IMG/VR virus record: IMGVR_UViG_2896595138_000012
Length of the DNA: 35,503 bases
Origin: a virus
Taxonomy: Duplodnaviria; Heunggongvirae; Uroviricota; Caudoviricetes
Strand: one strand, 5' to 3'
In this document: in pieces, positions 3,785 to 35,503 of the stretch
Position numbering within the stretch: position 1 is the first letter of the stretch
How the letters are laid out: each line of letters begins with the position of its first letter
Translations under genes and position numbers: made by a program
Notes under the pieces: model-generated
What the model was told of the DNA's origin: nothing
Databases searched by the model: none
Seen by the model: the letters and a program-made list of their open reading frames with translations, nothing else

Positions 3785-4027
3785 ATGAGAAAACACACAG
3801 CAGAACAGGTAAACGAATTTCTGCAGGGATATTACTTCGATAACGAAATTAATCCCCGCGCCAGAAAAACACACTTCGAAGTAATGAAGTGCGGAATATT
3901 CAGCGTCCGCAACACCCTGTTTTGTTCAAAAGATACGGGAGCCAGCGAGGACCTTAAAGAACTTAACCGGATGGCGAAACAATTAATGGATGGCATGGTT
4001 CCCGAACCCGCAATAATTACGGAGTAA
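3785..4027 (+). CDS. Hypothetical early protein
   Basis: 80-aa ORF with GAGGA RBS. Confidence 0.55.
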   Translation: MRKHTAEQVNEFLQGYYFDNEINPRARKTHFEVMKCGIFSVRNTLFCSKDTGASEDLKELNRMAKQLMDGMVPEPAIITE

Positions 4028-4032
4028 TCACG

Positions 4033-4218
4033 ATGAATTTCAGTTATTCATTCAGTGTACCGGAGTCGTTATTTGTTATCACACTGATTGCAGCCGCAAT
4101 GTTTTTTGCCATCTGCATACTGACACTTATTGATACATGGCGGGAAATACGCGACAGACGTCGCCAGAAAAAAAACGGGATGCATACAACGCATTCATTC
4201 AGCACAAAGAAGACGTAG
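4033..4218 (+). CDS. Small single-pass membrane protein
   Basis: 61 aa; GGAG RBS; hydrophobic helix VITLIAAAMFFAICILTLI followed by basic tail. Confidence 0.45.
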   Translation: MNFSYSFSVPESLFVITLIAAAMFFAICILTLIDTWREIRDRRRQKKNGMHTTHSFSTKKT

Positions 4219-4315
4219 AGCGTAAAGCACGCCGCCGTCTTTAGTTAATTAACCGGTTTCGTTAATACACCGCTCACGCGGCGGGATTCGCACAATCTGA
4301 ATAAGGGAAATAAAA

Positions 4316-4738
4316 ATGATTAATCCGACACTCACCCTCAAAGATAAAGCCCTTGCGGGCGCAATGTTTTTACGCAACTACGCCGCAATGATGGCTGACA
4401 CTGACAACCCGATTATGGTGCTGTCAGTGGAGCCTCACCTTATCGCCGCAGACGCAATTGAACAGGTGGTACAGGAAAACACCTGTCTGAGAAATCAGCT
4501 TGCCACCCTTCAGACAGCAGCTGACCCGGCAAAGGAAAGTGCTGAACACACCTGCCACACCACATTCATCAAAGGGACCCGCGTATGTCTGAAAAACAGT
4601 CCGCAGCAACGCGGAACGGTCGTTGACACCCGCACCAGTAGCCCCGCCATTGACCGGGTTTTCGTCCGTTTCGATTCCCCCTTCGAGGAAGACCGCCGGG
4701 TAAAGACCAGAAACCTGGAAATAACCCCCGACAAATGA
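4316..4738 (+). CDS. Hypothetical early protein
   Basis: 140-aa ORF; stop overlaps next start. Confidence 0.6.
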   Translation: MINPTLTLKDKALAGAMFLRNYAAMMADTDNPIMVLSVEPHLIAADAIEQVVQENTCLRNQLATLQTAADPAKESAEHTCHTTFIKGTRVCLKNSPQQRGTVVDTRTSSPAIDRVFVRFDSPFEEDRRVKTRNLEITPDK

Positions 4739-4992
4739 AGCTGATTATCCCTGCGCGACACCGCAAAAACCGGATGAAGCCAGGGGGAAAGCCGGAGCGG
4801 GCAGCAAGGGCGGCATACCGTCGCCTGCTGAAGGGGGACCGGTCACACGTGCGACGGCTGGAGCGGGTACCGCCCGCCCGCGTCATCAACGTCATGTACC
4901 GTTACCGGCTGTTAAGTCTGGACGAAGGCCGGACATGGGTACTGCTTAACCATAACGAATACGTGAAGAGGATAAGACGATGTTACAGATGA
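4735..4992 (+). CDS. Hypothetical basic protein
   Basis: 85 aa, arginine-rich; start overlaps upstream stop (operon coupling). Confidence 0.5.
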   Translation: MKLIIPARHRKNRMKPGGKPERAARAAYRRLLKGDRSHVRRLERVPPARVINVMYRYRLLSLDEGRTWVLLNHNEYVKRIRRCYR

Positions 4993-5510
4993 AATTTAAG
5001 CCCTGCTTTATTGACGCATTCCGCAACGGACGCAAGACCACATCCCTTCGCCCGACGGGGTTTGATTGCTACCAGGCGGGCCAGGAGTCAGCAGAATATT
5101 TTCATGAAGACACCCTGACCCGCAACATCGTTCTTCCCGATTACAGCGCCGGCGGTACCCTGGTTTTTGAGGAGGGAACCACATTTACCCGCGCATCAGA
5201 CTTTGCCGGACTCCTGAAAAGACAGCCCTACCGACAGTATGACAACATTCATCTGGTCACAGAAAACAAGAACGGCGAAACCGTGCCGTTCGCCGTGGCC
5301 TTCATTGCCGATATCGGTGTAATACAGGGCCGCCAGATAACCGATGAAGTGGCCGTCAGGGACGGCTTTAACCCTGAAAACCATCCCCGCGACGAACTCT
5401 TTGCATTCATGCGGGACACCTGCCACATAGAAAACCCCAAAAACGAAACCTACTGGCGGTACACCTTCACCCACATCGTGATGTTGTCGCAGTGGAGGGC
5501 TGACGCATGA
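4980..5510 (+). CDS. ASCH-like (PUA-fold) domain protein
   Basis: 176 aa; N-terminal F-x3-F-x2-NGRKTTSLRP pattern resembles ASCH domain start (recalled). Confidence 0.45.
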   Translation: MLQMKFKPCFIDAFRNGRKTTSLRPTGFDCYQAGQESAEYFHEDTLTRNIVLPDYSAGGTLVFEEGTTFTRASDFAGLLKRQPYRQYDNIHLVTENKNGETVPFAVAFIADIGVIQGRQITDEVAVRDGFNPENHPRDELFAFMRDTCHIENPKNETYWRYTFTHIVMLSQWRADA

Positions 5511-5746
5511 AACCCGCCATTATCTGCATTCTGTGCGAGAGCACTGTCACCGGCGGCCATTACCGCATCAGGGAACGCCACATCAACCCTGACCGTTCGC
5601 TGCTGGACAACATCACCGGCCCGAATGATGAACGCGTGATCTGCCTGAACGACGGCTCGCAGTTACGCGTGCGCAATATCCGGCGCGAAATCACGCTCGA
5701 ACCCACCCCATTCACACGCGGGAAAAAACCGGAGAGTGACGCATGA
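5507..5746 (+). CDS. Hypothetical protein
   Basis: 79-aa ORF with overlapping start/stop coupling to neighbours. Confidence 0.5.
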   Translation: MKPAIICILCESTVTGGHYRIRERHINPDRSLLDNITGPNDERVICLNDGSQLRVRNIRREITLEPTPFTRGKKPESDA

Positions 5747-6702
5747 AAGGTATTCTGAACCAGCGCTCACCGCTCAAATGGGCGGGCGGCAAATTCAGTA
5801 TCATGCCGCAGCTGCGCGAATATTTACCCAAAGCCGCCTGCCTGATCGAACCCTTCGTGGGCGGCGGCTCGGTCTTCATGAACACGGATTATGACTATTA
5901 CGTATTGTGTGACAGCAACCCCGCGCTGATTAATTTCTACCAGCAACTGACGACCAACACCACGGAATTAATGGATCGTGCATGGTCACTCTTTAAGGAT
6001 GGCGGCACACCGGAAGCCTACAAACGCCATCGCGGAGCATTTAACACCATCGCGCTGGCCACCGACAGATTACGCGGAGAATCCCTGGAATGGGCAGCGC
6101 TGTTTCTGTACCTGAACCGCCATTGCTTTAACGGCCTGTACCGCACCAACCAAAAAGGCGAATTCAATGTGCCATTCGGCAAACACCGCATGCCTTATTT
6201 CCCCTGCCAGGAAATGCGCCTGTTTGCTGATAAAGCCAACGAGACCCGGACCCGCTTTATTCACGCGGATTTCCGTACAGCCTTCACAATGCCGGCTGAG
6301 ATCCACCGTTTTTCTTCGGTGCACGGCGATATCGCCATTTACTGCGATCCGCCCTACCTGCCACCGAACGGTAAAGAGGCGTTCACTCACTACAACGGCC
6401 GGGCATTTACCCGCAAAGACCACCGTGACCTTGCGGCGCTCATGATGAACGCCTGGCAACGTTACGGTATCCACCCGGTGGTCTCCAACAGTGACACCTC
6501 CGAAACCCGGCAGATCTATTCCTCGTTTGAGCTGCACACCCTGAGCGTTCGCCGCGCTGTGGCTGCCAGCAGCAGTGCACGCCAGCAGGCAAAAGAGGTG
6601 ATTGGTGTTTATCCGCCAGCCCGTGAGGTCCGGATCCGGGATGTCAATGCGGGCTGGCTGTCTCACATTCCCGCTCCACACCCCACCACGGAGATCATGT
6701 AA
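5743..6702 (+). CDS. dam: DNA adenine (N6) methyltransferase, Dam family
   Basis: 319 aa; N-terminal LKWAGGK and catalytic DPPY (IYCDPPYLPP) motifs, strong resemblance to E. coli Dam N-terminus. Confidence 0.9.
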   Translation: MKGILNQRSPLKWAGGKFSIMPQLREYLPKAACLIEPFVGGGSVFMNTDYDYYVLCDSNPALINFYQQLTTNTTELMDRAWSLFKDGGTPEAYKRHRGAFNTIALATDRLRGESLEWAALFLYLNRHCFNGLYRTNQKGEFNVPFGKHRMPYFPCQEMRLFADKANETRTRFIHADFRTAFTMPAEIHRFSSVHGDIAIYCDPPYLPPNGKEAFTHYNGRAFTRKDHRDLAALMMNAWQRYGIHPVVSNSDTSETRQIYSSFELHTLSVRRAVAASSSARQQAKEVIGVYPPAREVRIRDVNAGWLSHIPAPHPTTEIM

Positions 6703-7558: not shown

Positions 7559-7678
7559 GTGATCATCATGCACACACAAAAAAACCGCTTGCCATGTCGC
7601 AATCAGTCAGGTTACATTTCCGCTGCACCTCATAAAACGGGTGCCGGGATTGAGACCCCGCTGACAAACGTAGCGCAC

Positions 7679-7699
7679 AACCGCGCCAGCGGTTTTTTT
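7679..7699 (+). terminator. Rho-independent terminator-like hairpin
   Basis: AACCGC-GCCA-GCGGTT stem-loop followed by a T7 run, about 120 nt after the 184-aa gene. Confidence 0.45.
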
Positions 7700-7878
7700 G
7701 TGCGTACCGTATCGTCACACCTTTTTCGCATCAGAATTATGGTGGGGCGTACAGGGCCGACTTCGGTCGGGCCGGGTTCTGCGTTTGCCGGTAGTCTCAA
7801 CCCTGTACGTCTCACCACCCCGAGTTTGAGACCTCTGGATGGTGAGTTTTCAAAACTTACACACGTAGAGGCCACACC

Positions 7879-8106
7879 ATGGCAAACCGCAAACAACAGC
7901 GCGCATACGCTGCGCGTCGTCACATCCGGACTGAAATCAACCGCAGACTTTTCCGCGCCTTCCGCGTCGCGCATATCATGCACATCAATATGCTGCATGA
8001 GCGCAGTCACGCACTGTCAAACACCTATTCCGCCGCTGTTTTCAGCTATCTGGCGGATGATCTGCGCGGGCTGCGGGACCTCATTAACCAGCACTACCAC
8101 CACTAA
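7879..8106 (+). CDS. Hypothetical small basic protein
   Basis: 75 aa; AGAGG RBS 7 nt upstream of ATG; preferred over the overlapping 202-aa ORF, which has non-protein-like composition. Confidence 0.4.
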   Translation: MANRKQQRAYAARRHIRTEINRRLFRAFRVAHIMHINMLHERSHALSNTYSAAVFSYLADDLRGLRDLINQHYHH

Positions 8107-8163
8107 TCAACATCCCGCATCCATACGCGGGAGGCTTCCGCACGTCCGTTTCCGGAGGTTCTC

Positions 8164-8577
8164 ATGAAGAGCGTTAAGGGACTTTCAGATATTCAGGATT
8201 TTTTTAACTGGATGTGGGCGGTGGATCCACGCCTCGCTTCCCGTCTCAATGACCTGCACGACTATTACCGCCGCGCCTGTAAACAGGCCGCCAGCAGCGC
8301 CACCACATACGGTGAGTTTTCCTTCACCGTTGACGACCGTTACCGCGTGGACGTCAGAGACCAGAACAACAGCCTGGAGCTGGGCCTGTTCCACATCAAC
8401 GGACTCGACAGCAGTGTTATCAGCTGGTCATCGTCAGAAATGGTGCTCGTTCTGGAAATGACCACCCACAGCGTGGTCGTGAAAGGGATTAAAACGGCAG
8501 AAGACTTTATCGCTGAATACCAGCGTCTTCTTGTGCTGTACCGGGCTGCATTTCAGAAGGCAACAGCAGGGGAGTAA
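8164..8577 (+). CDS. Hypothetical protein upstream of replication gene (position of P2 B)
   Basis: 137 aa; GGAGG RBS 6 nt upstream. Confidence 0.55.
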   Translation: MKSVKGLSDIQDFFNWMWAVDPRLASRLNDLHDYYRRACKQAASSATTYGEFSFTVDDRYRVDVRDQNNSLELGLFHINGLDSSVISWSSSEMVLVLEMTTHSVVVKGIKTAEDFIAEYQRLLVLYRAAFQKATAGE

Positions 8578-8582
8578 GCGGA

Positions 8583-20610: not shown

Positions 20611-21339
20611 ATGGACATCTCCCTGCACGGCGAACTTAACCGGACACAGCTTAAGCAGCTGCAGACAATGCTGGCCAACGGTGAGCTCCCCCCGGCAAAA
20701 CAACAGCGTCTGCTGCAGCGTATCGCAAAACGCGGCGTTATTCCGGCCGCAAAGCGCCATGTTCGCGAACAAAAGAATGTTGATGGCAGCAGTTTTGCAG
20801 AACGCCGCTATGGCAACAGACCGCTGCTGAAGGGGCTCCCTAAATTTCTGAAAGTGCACGACATGCCATCAGCGAAATCGGTGCGTATATACGCAGCAGG
20901 CAGGAGCTATCGCCAGCCCCACAACCACAGGGAAATCAGCGTGGGTGCAGTGGGATATATCCAGAGCCATGGCGTTACGTTCACAGTGAACGCATCGCAG
21001 CTGAAAACCGACGCGATGGAAAAAGCCAGCAAGGAACCCTGCTCCCGCCGTCAGGCGATAAAGCTGCGCAAGCTGGGCTATACGGTGAGCGGCAAAAAAA
21101 GGGGGACGCGCCGCAAACCATCAACGGCAGATATCCGGACGTCGCTCACGAAAGGGCAGGCAGGCGTGATTATCCGCAGCATGGAAGGCATACCATCCAA
21201 AAGCTGCTGGACGATAACCATCCCACCCCGTCAGTTCCTTGGTGTCAGTAACGAGGAATTTGCACGGATACTGTCCCGCCAGTTGCAGGGCATCAATTAT
21301 GGCTGGCAGACAAAGCCGCAGGACATTAAGAGGAAATAA
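20611..21339 (+). CDS. Virion morphogenesis / tail completion protein candidate
   Basis: 242 aa between head and tail sheath genes. Confidence 0.45.
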   Translation: MDISLHGELNRTQLKQLQTMLANGELPPAKQQRLLQRIAKRGVIPAAKRHVREQKNVDGSSFAERRYGNRPLLKGLPKFLKVHDMPSAKSVRIYAAGRSYRQPHNHREISVGAVGYIQSHGVTFTVNASQLKTDAMEKASKEPCSRRQAIKLRKLGYTVSGKKRGTRRKPSTADIRTSLTKGQAGVIIRSMEGIPSKSCWTITIPPRQFLGVSNEEFARILSRQLQGINYGWQTKPQDIKRK

Positions 21340-21342
21340 CCC

Positions 21343-22467
21343 ATGACGTTTCCACAGGTCACAATTAATCAGCTCAACACCCACAGCGGAAGCAAGCGTG
21401 GGATCGCCTGCACCCTGCTGATGGTGGGCGAGCATACAAAAGCCATTCTCCCGACACCGGTTACAGCACAAACCGATCTTGACTCGCTGTTAGGAACAAA
21501 GGATTCATTGTTACGCAGTAACGTGCAGGCGTTTCTGGATAATGCCGGACAAAATGCCATGATCTGGCTGGCAACCGTGCAGACACCCCAGCCTTCTGGT
21601 CAGACCCGAACGTGGGCTGATGTGGTTATGGATGCACAGGCCACCCTCTCGGTGGAAGGCGTTGTCGTTGTTCGCGCTAACGCCTCAGGTAACGATATCG
21701 ACAAAGCGCAGCAACTGCGCAGCGAACTCAATAACACCTTCCAGCGCTGGACATGGTTTATCCTGGCTGTTCGCGGCTGCGGAACAGGCGAGAAGTGGTC
21801 AGAATACGTCACCGTCATGACCGGACTACAGAAAGGCATTGCCGCTTACGCGGTGCAGCTTACCCCGATGCTGTTCGGCAATGAACCGGGGATACTGGCC
21901 GGTCGCCTTTGCAATCCATCAGTGACGATTGCTGATTCCCCCGCCCGTGTTGCAACCGGCGCACTGGTCAATATGGGCCGCAACGATAAACCGCAGGACA
22001 GCGACAAGCGCGAACTGGACATTGCCACCATCAGGGCCCTGAACAGGGCGCGTTTCAGCGTACCAACGTGGTATCCCGACTACGAAGGTTACTACTGGGC
22101 CGACGGCGTCACGCTCGATGTGGACGGTGGCGATTATCAGGCTATCGAATATCTGCGCGTTGCCGATGAAATGGCCCGTCAGGTGCGTTTGCTGGCTATC
22201 CCAAAAATCGCCAATCGCTCACTGAACTCCACCCCGGCAAGTGTGGCCGCGCACCAACAGCTTTTCGCGAAGCCCATGCGCGACGGCGCAAAGAGCCTGA
22301 AAATCAACGGCACGGTATTCCCTGGCCTTTGCATGTCACCGCACGACGGCGACGTAAAAATCTCATGGCCGGAAAAAGACAAAGTGCAGATTGCGATCGT
22401 GGTTCGCCCGTATAACTGCCCGAAAGAAATCACCATCAGCATCATGCTGGACGAAAGCGGAGAGTAA
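21343..22467 (+). CDS. Contractile tail sheath protein (DUF2586-like)
   Basis: 374 aa directly upstream of the tube gene; size and position typical of a tail sheath. Confidence 0.6.
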   Translation: MTFPQVTINQLNTHSGSKRGIACTLLMVGEHTKAILPTPVTAQTDLDSLLGTKDSLLRSNVQAFLDNAGQNAMIWLATVQTPQPSGQTRTWADVVMDAQATLSVEGVVVVRANASGNDIDKAQQLRSELNNTFQRWTWFILAVRGCGTGEKWSEYVTVMTGLQKGIAAYAVQLTPMLFGNEPGILAGRLCNPSVTIADSPARVATGALVNMGRNDKPQDSDKRELDIATIRALNRARFSVPTWYPDYEGYYWADGVTLDVDGGDYQAIEYLRVADEMARQVRLLAIPKIANRSLNSTPASVAAHQQLFAKPMRDGAKSLKINGTVFPGLCMSPHDGDVKISWPEKDKVQIAIVVRPYNCPKEITISIMLDESGE

Positions 22468-22470
22468 CCC

Positions 22471-22932
22471 ATGAACACCGAACGCATCAGTGGTATGAGC
22501 TTTGACACGTCATTTAATGGCCGCATCGTTCACGTAAAAACCGCCACCCTTGATATTACCGACAACACCAAAGCCATTCAGGAGCGCGGTGTACCTGATG
22601 GCTGGGTACGCGGCGACGTGGAAGCCGGCGGTGAAATTGAACTGGATACCGTTAACTTCCAGCTTCTTGGTGAAGCCGCGCGTGAAGCAGGGAGCTGGCG
22701 CGACATCGAAGAAGCCGACTTTCTCTTCTTTGCCCGTGCAGCAAAGACAGAACTCAGGGTGGAAGCCTTTGGTTGCAAACTGCTGATCAGTAACCTGCTG
22801 AATATCGACAGCAAGGGCGGTGACAACATAAGCCATAAAATCAAATTTATGGTGACTTCGCCGGAGTTCGTCAAAATTGACGGTGTTCCGGTTCTCAGCG
22901 CCACCGATGTTCGGGACATCATGAACCAATAG
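22471..22932 (+). CDS. Tail tube protein (DUF2597-like)
   Basis: 153 aa immediately after sheath gene. Confidence 0.6.
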   Translation: MNTERISGMSFDTSFNGRIVHVKTATLDITDNTKAIQERGVPDGWVRGDVEAGGEIELDTVNFQLLGEAAREAGSWRDIEEADFLFFARAAKTELRVEAFGCKLLISNLLNIDSKGGDNISHKIKFMVTSPEFVKIDGVPVLSATDVRDIMNQ

Positions 22933-23026
22933 GAAAGACAATGCAAAGCACCCCCACAACTGGAGCGACTGGCTGGCGATAATCAAAGACTGGTTACGTG
23001 GTGATATCCCTCTTGACAGTCTGCTG

Positions 23027-23278
23027 ATGACTGCCGTCATTGCAGCACTCAGAGTGTTTTACACAGGCCGCAGCTGGCGTCGTCTTTTGCTTGAGGTGCC
23101 GTTGTGTTGCCTGCTGGCCGTGGCGGCATTCACCCTCATTAAGCCGGTCCCCGTCGCATGGCTGACCGAAGACTGGCGCGTCGGTATCGGTGCCGCAATT
23201 GGCCTTATTGGTGTTGAACATATCCGGGCACTGGGTGTGTTCATCACAAAGAAATTTGCAGGGAAAAGTGACGAATGA
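23027..23278 (+). CDS. Holin (N-terminus probably lies upstream at 22941, see findings)
   Basis: 83 aa with two hydrophobic helices and charged C-terminus; stop overlaps lysozyme start. Confidence 0.6.
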   Translation: MTAVIAALRVFYTGRSWRRLLLEVPLCCLLAVAAFTLIKPVPVAWLTEDWRVGIGAAIGLIGVEHIRALGVFITKKFAGKSDE

Positions 23279-23718
23279 AAATTTCAGACAACGGGCTGGC
23301 CGCACTTAAACGCGAAGAAAACTGCAAACTGACCGCTTACCCCGATCCGCGCGGCGTATGGACCATTGGTACAGGTCACACAGGAAAGGTTGATGGTGTC
23401 GCAGTTCACAAAGGCATGACCATCACCCAGGACACCGCCGACAGACTGCTACGCGACGATCTGTCATGGGTGGAGCACTGCATCGCTGAACGGGTAACAG
23501 TTCCGCTGAACCAGAGTCAGTATGACGCGTTGTGTAGCCTGATTTTCAATATCGGCGCTGACGCTTTTATCGGTTCCACCGTTCGCCGTCAGTTAAACGC
23601 CGGCAACTACACCGCCGCCGCTGATGCTTTCCTGAAATGGAGCCGCGCAGGCAGTAACCCGACAATTCTGGCCCCGCGTCGCGGACGTGAGCGGGCAATG
23701 TTTCTGGGACAGAGGTAA
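23275..23718 (+). CDS. Phage lysozyme / endolysin (GH24, T4-lysozyme-like)
   Basis: 147 aa; catalytic E-x9-D-x5-T triad region REENCKLTAYPDPRGVWTIGTGHT. Confidence 0.85.
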   Translation: MKISDNGLAALKREENCKLTAYPDPRGVWTIGTGHTGKVDGVAVHKGMTITQDTADRLLRDDLSWVEHCIAERVTVPLNQSQYDALCSLIFNIGADAFIGSTVRRQLNAGNYTAAADAFLKWSRAGSNPTILAPRRGRERAMFLGQR

Positions 23719-23724
23719 GGCCAC

Positions 23725-24189
23725 ATGAAACGCGCAACACTCGCCTTTATCGTCTTCATGGTCGTCGCCGTGGCCGTGCTCGGCTTCACAGCTGACTACT
23801 GGCACAACCGCTTCACCAGGGCAGAAAAAGCCCGCCAGAAAGCCGTAAATCTTGCCGACACCCGACAGCAGACCATTGACGACATGACACTGCGTCAGCG
23901 CCAGAACGCCGCGCTTGATGCGAAATACACAAAGGAGCTCGCCAATGCAAAAGCTGAATCCGAAAAGTTACGCGCCGATCTTGCTTCTGGCCGTCGCCGG
24001 TTGCAGCTCCACGCCGTCTGTATGCCCGCCGCCACGCGTGATACCACCGCCACCGGCTCAACTGATGCAACCGCCGCCCGACTTACTCCGGACGCTGAAC
24101 GGGATTATCAGCATCTCAGAGCCGAAGCGAAAGCCGTCGTTGCACAAGTGAACGGCCTGCAACAGTACATTACTGAACAATGTCATTAA
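23725..24189 (+). CDS. Rz-like i-spanin
   Basis: 154 aa; N-terminal TM anchor then charged coiled-coil periplasmic domain; follows lysozyme. Confidence 0.7.
   Translation: MKRATLAFIVFMVVAVAVLGFTADYWHNRFTRAEKARQKAVNLADTRQQTIDDMTLRQRQNAALDAKYTKELANAKAESEKLRADLASGRRRLQLHAVCMPAATRDTTATGSTDATAARLTPDAERDYQHLRAEAKAVVAQVNGLQQYITEQCH
23945..24151 (+). CDS. Rz1-like o-spanin lipoprotein (embedded in Rz, +1 frame)
   Basis: AGGAG RBS; signal peptide with lipobox LAVAGC; proline-rich mature part. Confidence 0.7.
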   Translation: MQKLNPKSYAPILLLAVAGCSSTPSVCPPPRVIPPPPAQLMQPPPDLLRTLNGIISISEPKRKPSLHK

Positions 24190-24192
24190 AAA

Positions 24193-24492
24193 ATGGCACC
24201 ACTCACCGGGGAAAATAGCATGAAAGACGAAAATACCACCATCATCACCCTGACCGTCGCAGGCGAGGACATTCGCTTCGCCCCGACCGAAGCTGTCTAC
24301 AACAAGTTCGTGAATGAAATAACGATGGATAACAAGGTGGCGCCAGCCAAAAACTACCTGATGCGCTGTGTACACCCGGAAGACAAAGAGAAACTGGAGA
24401 AGCTCATTCACCGCCCGGGAGCAGCCCTTCAGATGGCAGCAAAACTCAATGAAGATTTTGCCGTCAATCTGGATATCACCGTAAAAAAATAA
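24193..24492 (+). CDS. Tail assembly chaperone (P2 gpE-like); -1 frameshift product would extend to 24680
   Basis: 99 aa ending VKK at an A AAA AAA heptamer directly before the tape measure gene. Confidence 0.65.
   Translation: MAPLTGENSMKDENTTIITLTVAGEDIRFAPTEAVYNKFVNEITMDNKVAPAKNYLMRCVHPEDKEKLEKLIHRPGAALQMAAKLNEDFAVNLDITVKK
24483..24489 (+). other. Programmed -1 ribosomal frameshift slippery heptamer
   Basis: A_AAA_AAA in X_XXY_YYZ register at the last two codons of the chaperone; -1 frame open to a TAA at 24678-24680. Confidence 0.6.
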
Positions 24493-24819
24493 AGGCGGCA
24501 CTGTCCGGCATTGAGCGCAACGGCTACGCGCAATATCTGGTATTACGCCGCCACTGGCTACCGGATGGCGAGGACACACCGGAAGACATTGCCGCTGCGG
24601 TCTGGCTGGACAACCGTTATTTCGAAAACATGAGTATTGCCGTCAATAACGGCATTGCGAGAGCATTTAAAGGTGGGTAATGGCTGCTGAACTTGATTTT
24701 ACGCTAAGTCTGGTTGATAAGCTGACGAGACCCTTAAAACAGGCGCAATCGGCTGTGACCGGATTTGCTGACAAGGCAACAGCCGACTTTAAACGTCTCG
24801 GTTTTGGTGTGGCCGGGTT

Positions 24820-26760
24820 ATGGGGGCTGCTCAGGGAATAAAAGGACTGGTCAACCCCGCCCGCGACATGGAAGCCGCGCTGGCCGAAGTCAGCTCGCTG
24901 GATGTGGCAAATAAAACACTCGATCAGCTGCGTAAAACTTCACAGACGTTTGCCATTAACTACGGCGAAAGCGCCAGCAATTTCGTCCGCAGCGCCTACG
25001 ATATCCAGTCCGCCATCGCAGGACTTCAGGGTGACGAACTGCCAAAATTTACTGAAGCATCCGCCATTCTCGCCAAAGCCACCAAATCAGACACGGCCAC
25101 CATTACTAACTATATGGGCACCATGTACGGTGTTTTTAAAAATACCGCAGAGAAGATGGGGCGCACGCAGTGGGTTGAACAAATTGCCGGGCAGACCGCA
25201 ACCGCCGTTCAGGTGTTCAAAACTACCGGTAATGAAATGTCTGCTGCCTTTACTGCGCTGGGTGCCAACGCGCAGGCAATGAAGGTATCTGCCGCTGAAC
25301 AGTTCGCCGTACTGGGACAGCTCCAGTCCACCATGTCAGGCAGCGAGGCGGGAACCAAATATAAATCATTCCTGGCGGGGATTGGGAATGCGCAAAAAGT
25401 GCTGGGGCTGAACTTTACCAACCGGGACGGCAGTGCCAGAAGCATTACCGGTATCATCGACCTGATTAAAGGAAAGTTTGGCGATCTGTCAAAAGTGGCA
25501 GATGCAGACCTGCTGAAAAAAGCCTTTGGCAGCGATGAAGCGGTGTCCATGATTAAACTACTGACCGGAGATGTTGACGGGCTGAAACGGAACATCAATA
25601 CATTAGGTAACATCAAAGGCATGGATAAAGCCATCGAAATGGCGAAAAAGATGGTTGACCCGTGGGATCAGGTTAATTCTTTACTGGAGCAGGTTCGCGT
25701 CAGCATTGGTCTGCGGCTCGATCCCGTCTTTGCCCCGTTCCTGCAAAAAATCATCACCGGCGGGAAAGCCTTCATGAAATGGCTGGATACGTTCCCCAAT
25801 ATTGCCCGCTGGCTGGGATATATCACTGCAATGACCCTCGCCTTTGCCGCAGCAGGGGCGCTTGCCAGTATCACGATGGGGGCCTTCGGCTTTATCATGA
25901 CCGGGCTCAGCGGAATTGCTGGCGTGCTGAAAGGCGCATGGAAAGGACTAATCTTCACCCTGGATTTATTACGCCCCTCCCTGCTTTCAACCCGTCTTGG
26001 CCTGATGGGGCTATGGATTCAGGAAAAAGCCGTCTGGGTGTGGTCAAAGCTGGTCGCTCTTTGGGCAGGGATCTGTAAAGCAGCGATCGTAGCCTGGAAC
26101 GTAGTGTTACGTGCGGGCGCGGTTGCAATGCGCCTGTGGGGCGTGGCGACGGCATTCGCAGGCGGTGCGCTTCAACTCCTGATAAGTCCCATAACCCTGA
26201 TTATTCTCGCCATTGCCGCACTTGCCGTAGGGATCTGTCTGGCTATCAAATACTGGGACAGTATTAAAGCCGCCATCATGGACACGGAAGCTTTCAGTGC
26301 CCTGCTAAAAGTCATTAACGCTGTGGTGGGCTGGTTTGATGATGCATGGAACAGCATTAAAGCCGGATGGGACAATCTGACGAACTGGTTTAAAAATTTC
26401 TCGCTGGCCGACACATTCGGCAATATCACAGCTGGAATTGGCAAGCTCTTTGACGGCATATGGGATTCCATTAAGAGCGCCTTTACCGGGACATGGAACT
26501 GGATAGCAGAGAAGCTCAACAAAATCCCCGGTGTCAATATCAGCACCGCACAACAGACCGTCGCACCGACACCCGCCCCGGAGCTTATCACTGGCAACCG
26601 TAGCGCCGCCATCCAGGGCGGGCCGGTAAGTCACCAGATAAGCAACAACCGGGGCGACAAAGTCACCAATAACAACGTTAAGCAGGATATCACACTGCAC
26701 GTTGACACCCTGGCGACACCGGGACAACTGGCGGAATACAGCGAACTGGCAGCGGGGTGA
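24820..26760 (+). CDS. Tail tape measure protein (5' end apparently frameshifted; true start probably 24680)
   Basis: 646 aa, Ala/Gly-rich with central hydrophobic segments; follows chaperone pair. Confidence 0.8.
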   Translation: MGAAQGIKGLVNPARDMEAALAEVSSLDVANKTLDQLRKTSQTFAINYGESASNFVRSAYDIQSAIAGLQGDELPKFTEASAILAKATKSDTATITNYMGTMYGVFKNTAEKMGRTQWVEQIAGQTATAVQVFKTTGNEMSAAFTALGANAQAMKVSAAEQFAVLGQLQSTMSGSEAGTKYKSFLAGIGNAQKVLGLNFTNRDGSARSITGIIDLIKGKFGDLSKVADADLLKKAFGSDEAVSMIKLLTGDVDGLKRNINTLGNIKGMDKAIEMAKKMVDPWDQVNSLLEQVRVSIGLRLDPVFAPFLQKIITGGKAFMKWLDTFPNIARWLGYITAMTLAFAAAGALASITMGAFGFIMTGLSGIAGVLKGAWKGLIFTLDLLRPSLLSTRLGLMGLWIQEKAVWVWSKLVALWAGICKAAIVAWNVVLRAGAVAMRLWGVATAFAGGALQLLISPITLIILAIAALAVGICLAIKYWDSIKAAIMDTEAFSALLKVINAVVGWFDDAWNSIKAGWDNLTNWFKNFSLADTFGNITAGIGKLFDGIWDSIKSAFTGTWNWIAEKLNKIPGVNISTAQQTVAPTPAPELITGNRSAAIQGGPVSHQISNNRGDKVTNNNVKQDITLHVDTLATPGQLAEYSELAAG

Positions 26761-32217: not shown

Positions 32218-32746
32218 TGGTCAGATAATCCCGCTAAAACGCTTAAGTGTCAGCGTGAAGCTGACCATCAAAGACAAAGACGCTTCCGGAAAATCCTCAT
32301 CAACAGCGACTTCAGAACAGGGTGTAAAAGCCAAGGAGCTGCAGATTTCCGGACTGATTCCGTTCACCCAGCCGGAAGCACTCACACGCTTATTTCGTCT
32401 GGCTGAAGCCAGAGCCGCTAACGGTGCACAACAGGTTTACCGCATCGCCAACATGGATGCCAAAGCGGTCAATATGAAGCAAGGGATTTTTTCCGGTGCC
32501 GTGGGCGCAACTCCTGAAACAGGCCTGATGGCATGGAAAGTTGACTTCACTCTGAAAGAAAAACTCAGCAGTGCCGAAAAGGCGACAGGACGCGGCCCGG
32601 CTGGCAGCCAGAGTGCTGAACAGCACGCACAGGCCGTCAAATCAGGTGGCAAAGGCGAAAAAAACGAAGAGCATGGCTGGTTCTGGAAAATGTCAGACAA
32701 ACTCAATAACTGGATAGGCCCGGCAGGCAATGAAACCAATTCGTGA
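32180..32746 (+). CDS. Tail/baseplate-associated protein candidate
   Basis: 188-aa ORF overlapping neighbours on both sides. Confidence 0.45.
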   Translation: MSQNTTTPLLALNGQIIPLKRLSVSVKLTIKDKDASGKSSSTATSEQGVKAKELQISGLIPFTQPEALTRLFRLAEARAANGAQQVYRIANMDAKAVNMKQGIFSGAVGATPETGLMAWKVDFTLKEKLSSAEKATGRGPAGSQSAEQHAQAVKSGGKGEKNEEHGWFWKMSDKLNNWIGPAGNETNS

Positions 32747-35362: not shown

Positions 35363-35503
35363 ATGTCGCAAAAATCGCTTACGGCCATCACGTTCTGCGT
35401 GACGGCAATCCTCATCATCTGGATGCTGCACGGTTCGCTGTGTGAAATACGGATGAGCTTCTGGGGAGCGGAGTTTGCGGCGTTCTTACAGTGTAAACAG
35501 TAA
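35363..35503 (+). CDS. hok: Hok/Gef-family type I toxin-like small membrane protein
   Basis: 46 aa; AGGAG RBS; N-terminal TM helix, then SLCEIR and EFAAF matching the Hok/Gef conserved core (SLCEIR ... EVAAF). Confidence 0.55.
   Translation: MSQKSLTAITFCVTAILIIWMLHGSLCEIRMSFWGAEFAAFLQCKQ

Follow-up and report, generated by a model that had tools for sequence, protein, structure and literature searches.

A predicted lambda-family embedded spanin, Rz/Rz1, in the lysis cassette of an HP1-like Escherichia coli prophage

The DNA analysed here, a stretch of 35,503 nucleotides referred to below as the window, carries on its plus strand a gene pair that almost certainly encodes a lambda-family embedded two-component spanin, Rz/Rz1, forming the last step of a holin-soluble endolysin-spanin cassette in an HP1-like E. 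coli prophage. The o-spanin gene (23945-24151) lies inside the i-spanin gene (23725-24189), an arrangement that an earlier sequence-only reading of this DNA had claimed and that is now supported by matches to PF03245, PF06085 and PHROG families and by identity to the lambda proteins. The open reading frames and their relative frame, the Shine-Dalgarno sequence, the lipobox, the transmembrane segment, the cysteine positions, the family assignment, the selection on two frames and the gene order are all directly visible in the window and in its alignments.

The Rz and Rz1 genes and their products

The Rz open reading frame (23725-24189, plus strand), as read from the sequence, comprises 154 codons from ATG to TAA. 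The 154-aa product is assigned to the i-spanins by Pfam PF03245 (E=8.3e-33; 113.7 bits against a cutoff of 25.4), by PHROG 13 ('Rz-like spanin'), which matches over the full length with E=7e-46, and by alignment with lambda Rz, to which it is 41% identical over 153 aa with one gap. Its closest relatives in the phage collection are those of lambdoid phages, at 45-50% identity. No NCBIfam model matches either Rz or Rz1. The protein begins with MKRA, which precedes a hydrophobic segment, TLAFIVFMVVAVAVLGFTA, predicted to be membrane-spanning at about residues 5-23 (23737-23793, plus strand). In a Kyte-Doolittle analysis with a 19-residue window the hydropathy peaks at 2.57 over residues 4-22, and the rest of the protein does not exceed 1.6. 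This profile suggests a single N-terminal transmembrane anchor, with the remainder forming a periplasmic helical domain, and thus a type II topology. The two cysteines of Rz, Cys99 and Cys153, have C99 and C152 of lambda Rz as their counterparts in the alignment.

The Rz1 open reading frame (23945-24151) runs on the same strand for 68 codons from ATG to stop. Its start lies 220 nt into Rz (23945-23725), hence in the +1 frame, and the Rz stop follows 38 nt after that of Rz1, so that the whole of Rz1 is contained within Rz. Expressed in gene length L of Rz, its ends fall at 0.47 L and 0.92 L. In the survey by Kongari et al. 2018 (PMC6139136), some 70% of embedded o-spanins have their start at 0.4-0.5 L and their end at 0.9-1 L, and the positions found here fit this modal class. 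The predicted product, a 68-aa lipoprotein precursor, scores 40.2 bits with PF06085 (cutoff 27.9), is matched by PHROG 3198 ('Rz-like spanin') with E=3e-18, and aligns with lambda Rz1 at 52% identity.

The precursor consists of MQKLNPKSYAPILLLAVAGC followed by SSTPSVCPPPRVIPPPPAQLMQPPPDLLRTLNGIISISEPKRKPSLHK, the mature part beginning SSTPSVC. Lys3 and Lys7 lie in the n-region of the signal and the h-region is devoid of charged residues. The lipobox L-A-V-A-G-C is encoded at 23987-24004 on the plus strand, with the TGC codon of Cys20 at 24002-24004 followed by two serine codons; the PROSITE pattern PS51257 matches APILLLAVAG with the cysteine at position 20. Residue +2 is Ser and not Asp. In the mature protein 13 of the 49 residues (27%) are proline. 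Both the LAVAGC lipobox and the proline-rich character had been noted from the sequence alone, and both hold; the check for a signal peptide and lipobox, features whose absence would have counted against the embedded gene, found the Cys20 lipobox in place. Cys27 aligns with C29 of lambda Rz1, and in an alignment of eight sequences the invariant positions comprise G19-C20 of the lipobox, PPA-MQPPPD and LNGIIS-S.

Coding evidence for the embedded frame

The +1 open reading frame could in principle be a non-coding by-product of Rz: on this view a gene rich in Ala, Arg and Gln would tend to stay open in that frame, and only Rz would be real. This possibility was addressed by a recoding control in which the Rz protein was kept fixed, its codons were recoded synonymously, and +1 ATG-ORFs of at least 68 aa were counted. 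Such an ORF was kept in 18% of the recodings when codons were resampled by usage and in 45% when they were shuffled within the gene, and 12-29% of the recodings contained some lipobox-like ORF. An ORF this long is therefore common given the Rz protein, and its length was rejected as evidence for Rz1. Because length is uninformative, the case for Rz1 must rest on content and conservation. That Rz1 is left uncalled by automatic annotation also agrees with a by-product.

The content of the frame is far from what recoding produces. An independent Rz1 HMM, representing 25 other loci, gave the observed +1 frame 64.4 bits, whereas none of 2000 synonymous recodings exceeded 24.0 bits. Conservation was assessed with 55 distinct Rz homologues that were 33-54% identical to the Rz of the window, collected from 80 genomic loci and three phage records (lambda and two lambdoid phages). 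In the scan of genome contigs, which covered one genome per species, the best matches were only 49-54% identical and none was a close relative; many of the matches there are lambda DNA contaminants, and once duplicates had been removed the set served solely for comparison at the family level. An embedded +1 lipobox ORF with the same motifs is retained in 48 of these 55 diverged homologues. The remaining seven comprise two indel-ridden lambda copies and five that were missed by the search pattern.

The synonymous sites of Rz give a further signal. When 41 non-redundant Rz genes are aligned by codon, synonymous-codon identity reaches 0.81-0.84 in codons 101-130, which encode the conserved mature part of Rz1, and 0.52 in the non-overlapping codons 1-73. 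Suppression of synonymous change precisely over the conserved part of Rz1 is the signature of purifying selection on both the Rz and the Rz1 frame, and is not what a by-product of Rz would leave. In addition, lambda Rz1, to which the product is 52% identical, is treated in the literature as an essential lysis gene (PMC6139136). We regard homology, synonymous-site suppression and conservation of the lipobox ORF as decisive for Rz1 being a gene under selection, as judged from these alignments, and consider the chance that the frame is non-coding to be negligible. On the minus strand, ORFs run across the same region at 23813-24070 and 24058-24579; both plus-strand frames are already accounted for.

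Translation start of Rz1

A Shine-Dalgarno sequence, AAGGAG, is present at 23931-23936 on the plus strand, 8 nt upstream of the ATG at 23945. It coincides with the codons for Lys-Glu in YTKEL, a conserved motif of Rz, and together with the ATG it is invariant in an alignment of the window, lambda and two related contigs. Two further in-frame start codons, ATG at 23918 and TTG at 23915, lie upstream of this start and 5' of the Shine-Dalgarno sequence.

Translation might begin at ATG 23918 instead, which would give a 77-aa precursor beginning MRNTQRSSPMQKL. This codon is in frame and the reading frame is open from it, an equivalent extension (MRNTQR/MPNT...) is open in several homologues, and the lipobox cysteine, then at position 29, still lies in the range allowed by PS51257. 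However, the AAGGAG sequence lies downstream of ATG 23918 and 8 nt 5' of 23945, and no SD-like sequence was found when the region upstream of 23918 was checked. The annotated start of lambda Rz1 aligns with 23945, and LDAKYTKEL, a conserved motif of Rz, accounts for the ATG at 23918 when read in the +1 frame. Initiation at 23918 thus appears improbable, and 23945, the lambda-equivalent codon, is taken as the start of Rz1. The mature lipoprotein would be identical with either start.

The lysis cassette and its position in the prophage

The lysis cassette that the sequence-only reading saw confirmed by the spanin pair is indeed present: a lambda-family holin gene and a PF00959 lysozyme gene are followed by Rz/Rz1. 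The endolysin gene (23275-23718, plus strand) encodes a 147-aa protein of the lysozyme family (Pfam PF00959, E=1.8e-39; PHROG 7, endolysin). Its translation contains E15-x8-D24-x5-T30, which we take to be the catalytic triad, as in T4-type lysozymes. An N-terminal hydrophobic (SAR) segment is absent, so that the enzyme is expected to be soluble and to need a hole-forming holin. The holin gene (22941-23278, plus strand) belongs to the lambda family (class I, S-like) as judged by TIGR01594 on its intact version; in the window the loss of one C near 22951 (C6 to C5) shifts its reading frame after codon 5. The longest ORF left over (23027-23278, 83 aa) matches only positions 26-92 of PF05106. The intact 112-aa holin encoded in NZ_CP011416.1 scores 60.7 bits with TIGR01594 (holin_lambda), against a cutoff of 55.05.

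A promoter scan of 22300-24900 found no promoter-like (sigma-70-like) site, and a terminator scan of the same interval gave a single terminator-like hit, which is on the minus strand and below shuffle expectation, and none on the coding strand. With neither kind of site of its own on the coding strand, the cassette is probably transcribed within the late tail operon.

The surrounding genes are those of a P2-family prophage. The window encodes an integrase, a GPA replication protein, an ogr-like gene product, a portal protein, terminase, a P2-type capsid protein and a gpR-like tail completion protein. Upstream of the cassette are the tail sheath gene (21343-22467, plus strand; DUF2586/HP1 orf23 family, PF10758, E=9.5e-114), whose product is 50-53% identical to the annotated sheaths of HP1 and ESSI2_ev239, and, directly 5' of the cassette, the tail tube gene (22471-22932, plus strand; HP1 Orf24 family, PF10772, E=2e-54), with 50-52% identity to the counterparts in HP1, ev239 and SI7. 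Directly 3' of Rz is the tail assembly chaperone gene (24193-24492, plus strand; PF10963, E=4.5e-31), 45-57% identical to the HP1, ev239 and SI7 chaperones; in the homologous RefSeq gene the start chosen by PGAP corresponds to window position 24220. It is followed by the tape measure gene (24680-26760, plus strand; Pfam PF10145), which is split by a G6-to-G5 deletion near 24822 and is intact, with 693 aa, in L001.

The resulting order, sheath, tube, holin, endolysin, Rz/Rz1, tail chaperone, tape measure, is the same in HP1, ESSI2_ev239 and SI7. In P2, Y-K-lysA-lysB-lysC follow L/X, and FI-FII-E-T lie far downstream. The claim that the cassette sits between the tail tube (PF10772) and tail chaperone (PF10963) genes, unlike that of P2, is therefore correct. 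The proposed synteny comparison with P2 and its relatives also shows that a cassette between tube and chaperone is the norm among HP1-like Peduoviridae and no peculiarity of this prophage.

Over 13555-35503 the window has 99.7% identity to a prophage that E. coli CFSAN029787 carries beside its tRNA-Leu/Cys/Gly-pgsA-uvrC region. Among 5426 complete E. coli genomes, the cassette is present in six. A megablast search of the phage collection with the cassette gave no match. A tblastn search of phages with Rz1 was also empty, a result that says nothing on absence, as lambda Rz1 is 52% identical in direct comparison; we suspect that the low-complexity filter masked the proline-rich query.

State of the cassette in this copy

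Rz and Rz1 are themselves intact in the window. Relative to the CFSAN029787 prophage (NZ_CP011416.1), however, the window has four 1-base deletions, each of which breaks an ORF. They affect the holin (about 22951), the tape measure (about 24822), a tail fibre (about 28951) and a hypothetical gene (about 31567). All four shorten G/C homopolymers (C6 to C5, G6 to G5, C6 to C5 and G4 to G3).

If these frameshifts were real, the prophage would be decaying, the cassette would be dead in this copy, and Rz/Rz1 would be relics that are not yet degraded. Besides the four broken ORFs, an IS110-family transposase between the ogr-like and portal genes, found in the window only, points in this direction. 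Against it, every one of the changes shortens a G or C run, which is a signature of read or assembly error, and four independent frameshifts would be unexpected where the rest of the prophage matches its relative at 99.7% identity. Furthermore, the six RefSeq copies align across the full 1701-base cassette query at 99.9% identity, and NZ_CP011416.1, the one copy inspected base by base, has the C6 run and an intact holin. A dead cassette is accordingly considered unlikely, and the four homopolymer deletions are probably read or assembly errors. The function of the spanin in this copy is predicted from its genes; should the holin frameshift be real, the spanin could not be triggered.

Proposed lysis mechanism

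The route from lipidation and sorting to complex formation, disulfide linkage and membrane fusion is proposed here for Rz/Rz1 by homology to lambda. Rz would be a type II inner-membrane protein with a helical domain that spans the periplasm. Rz1 would be translated from its own Shine-Dalgarno sequence and ATG within Rz, in the +1 frame, after which the precursor would be exported, lipidated at Cys20 and processed by signal peptidase II. The serine at +2 is expected to direct the lipoprotein to the inner leaflet of the outer membrane. Rz and Rz1 would then bind each other through their C-terminal parts. Kongari et al. 2018 (PMC6139136) describe C99 and C152 of lambda Rz and C29 of lambda Rz1 as the positions at which homotypic intermolecular disulfides form, and the periplasmic cysteines found here, C99 and C153 of Rz and C27 of Rz1, may likewise link homodimers covalently. 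The complex would be restrained by the murein mesh until the holin releases the endolysin and the wall is degraded, whereupon the complexes would bring about fusion of the inner with the outer membrane, and the cell would burst. This mechanism is textbook biology that is already known, and no new mechanism is proposed.

Annotation and significance

Rz1 is left unannotated by PGAP in NZ_CP011416.1, and in the other five near-identical E. coli RefSeq prophages the name spanin or Rz1 does not occur under the match. In a collection of 5.8 billion clusters, no more than eight relatives were called as proteins. The gap is an example of the systematic blind spot that gene callers have for embedded genes. 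The only additions to what is known are the cassette swap discussed below, this annotation gap and the probable homopolymer errors, and beyond the correct annotation of Rz/Rz1 the importance of the finding is slight.

Comparison with known spanins

Three types of known system were compared with the pair. A unimolecular spanin of the T1 gp11 type likewise serves to disrupt the outer membrane as lysis is completed (PMC6139136). It is, however, one protein carrying an N-terminal lipobox and a C-terminal transmembrane segment, and in the window these features are split over Rz and Rz1. The transmembrane segment of Rz is N-terminal and Rz lacks a lipobox, and Rz1 lacks a C-terminal hydrophobic segment; this type was rejected.

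The closest known systems are lambda Rz/Rz1 and, among other lambdoid phages, P22 gp15/Rz1. As in the window, the lambda o-spanin is fully embedded in the +1 frame, starts 220 nt into Rz and is preceded by an AAGGAG Shine-Dalgarno sequence. The proteins are of similar size (153 and 60 aa in lambda, 154 and 68 aa in the window). They share the N-terminal transmembrane segment of Rz and, in Rz1, the lipobox Cys20, a residue other than Asp at +2, a proline-rich mature part and the motifs PPPPAxxMQPPPD and LNGIIS, the cysteine positions being conserved as well. The identity to lambda is, on the other hand, only 41% for Rz and 52% for Rz1, and Rz1 of the window has a basic C-terminal extension of about 9 residues (EPKRKPSLHK). 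The endolysin is a lysozyme of the T4/P22 type, and a BLASTP comparison with the lambda R protein gave no match. Moreover, the host element is an HP1-like, myovirus-type prophage and not a lambdoid one, and the cassette lies inside its tail gene block.

The spanins of P2 (LysB/LysC), HP1, ESSI2_ev239 and SI7 have the same function, and in the HP1-like phages they occupy the same slot, after holin and endolysin and between tube and chaperone. The sheath, tube and chaperone of HP1, ev239 and SI7 are 45-57% identical to those of the window. The architecture differs in that the o-spanins of P2 and the HP1-like phages extend beyond the i-spanin stop and are overlapped rather than embedded. The o-spanins of P2, HP1 and ev239 match PF23793 (LysC), whereas Rz1 of the window matches only PF06085 and ends inside Rz; a spanin of the P2 LysB/LysC type was rejected on these grounds. 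A BLASTP comparison of Rz with the i-spanins of HP1, ev239 and SI7 gave no match, and comparison of the holin, Rz and Rz1 of the window with the genes of these three phages gave no meaningful match. The holins of the HP1-like relatives fall in PF16080 or PF04550, and among the three relatives ev239 and SI7 encode an endolysin of 112-113 aa, which in ev239 is an M15 peptidase.

Since the spanin is of the embedded lambda type and not an overlapped LysB/LysC pair, the holin and spanin genes have an origin different from those of the relatives, and the presence of a lambda-family holin and Rz/Rz1 in an HP1-type slot is interpreted as a module exchange. According to Kongari et al. 2018 (PMC6139136), embedded and overlapped architectures do not occur together in any one spanin family, and the window is consistent with replacement, not conversion, of its spanin genes. 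Two metagenome-derived contigs bear on how such genes move. One of them, L090, begins at an Rz1 that is 74% identical to that of the window and lies directly upstream of an 86%-identical chaperone, hence in the HP1-type slot, and any holin gene 5' of it would be outside the contig. In the other, the Peduoviridae-like L089, it is the P2-type slot after gpL/gpX that contains the holin and Rz1, which are 80% and 79% identical, respectively, to those of the window. A methyltransferase gene is found inside the lysis cassette of L089. It is thus fairly likely that lysis genes move as modules within the Peduoviridae, independent of the site of the cassette. The lambda-family holin and spanin in an HP1-type slot would be one more clean example of lysis-cassette mosaicism, and, if the modular movement is real, such natural combinations of backbone and cassette could be used to ask whether the type of spanin must match other features of the phage.

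Annotation of Rz1 and Rz homologues in public sequences

The o-spanin gene Rz1 (window 23945-24151) is embedded in the +1 frame of the i-spanin gene Rz. In the prophage of E. coli CFSAN029787, the sole PGAP annotation at 20827-21291 of the RefSeq locus, the segment that corresponds to window 23725-24189, is 'lysis protein', and Rz1 is absent from the annotation of the RefSeq record examined (NZ_CP011416.1). Neither a spanin nor an Rz1 name is listed at the match in the other five near-identical E. coli prophages. Among 5.8 billion clusters only eight relatives of the window Rz1 have been called as proteins, and its exact sequence is not among the called proteins.

Homologues of Rz found in the scan of genome contigs include dozens with exactly 41% identity (loci L022-L045, L053, L084-L087 and similar ones). 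These are located on short contigs, many of about 3.5 kb, assigned to unrelated source organisms such as Kitasatospora, Brevibacillus, Oceanobacillus, Pedobacter and Arcanobacterium. Because they encode the lambda Rz1 verbatim, these contigs seem to represent lambda control DNA that has contaminated public assemblies. Despite its name, 'lysis system i-spanin subunit Rz', a Shigella boydii protein of 88 aa (P0005) carries both the Rz (PF03245) and the Rz1 (PF06085) domain; apparently a frameshift has joined the N-terminal part of Rz to the Rz1 frame.

Comparison with the CFSAN029787 prophage

Alignment with the prophage in NZ_CP011416.1 (99.7% identity) shows four single-base deletions in the window, all of which lie in G/C homopolymers. 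Those at about 22951 (C6 to C5), 24822 (G6 to G5), 28951 (C6 to C5) and 31567 (G4 to G3) break the ORFs of the holin, the tape measure protein, the tail fibre and a hypothetical gene, respectively. They seem to be errors of long-read sequencing or of assembly, not signs of a decaying prophage.

The late genes of the window are 99.7% identical to those of the CFSAN029787 prophage, whereas the stretches 8072-9771 and 9771-11761, around the GPA replication gene, are just 84% identical or not alignable, which places a recombination boundary within the early region. The early region of the prophage also holds adjoining Rfam matches to the Hfq-binding RNA isrK (7625-7699, plus strand, 67.3 bits) and to C4 antisense RNA (7735-7822, plus strand, 81.8 bits), both above the gathering score.

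An IS110-family transposase ORF with PF01548 and PF02371 (12333-13529, plus strand) is flanked by an ogr-like gene (11825-12100) on one side and the portal gene (13601-14677) on the other, both on the minus strand. This insertion is not present in the CFSAN029787 copy, which instead has IS600 elsewhere and HTH and PIN genes. At the right end, the last base of the window is the exact end of a gene (35363-35503, plus strand) homologous to the one annotated as a Hok/Gef family toxin at 32468-32608 of the RefSeq locus. Since the window stops exactly there, the prophage region is suggested to be bounded on its right by a hok-type module.

Relation to a P2-type lysis slot

The metagenome-derived Peduoviridae-like contig L089 (Logan SRR12633975, region 3851-6245) has a P2-type backbone (gpO-N-M-L-X). 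Its Rz gene is broken up into two ORFs, and an N6/N4 methyltransferase gene lies between this gene and that of the endolysin. The holin and Rz1 in the P2 slot of this contig are 80% and 79% identical to those of the window, respectively, but its endolysin (137 aa) differs from the window endolysin.
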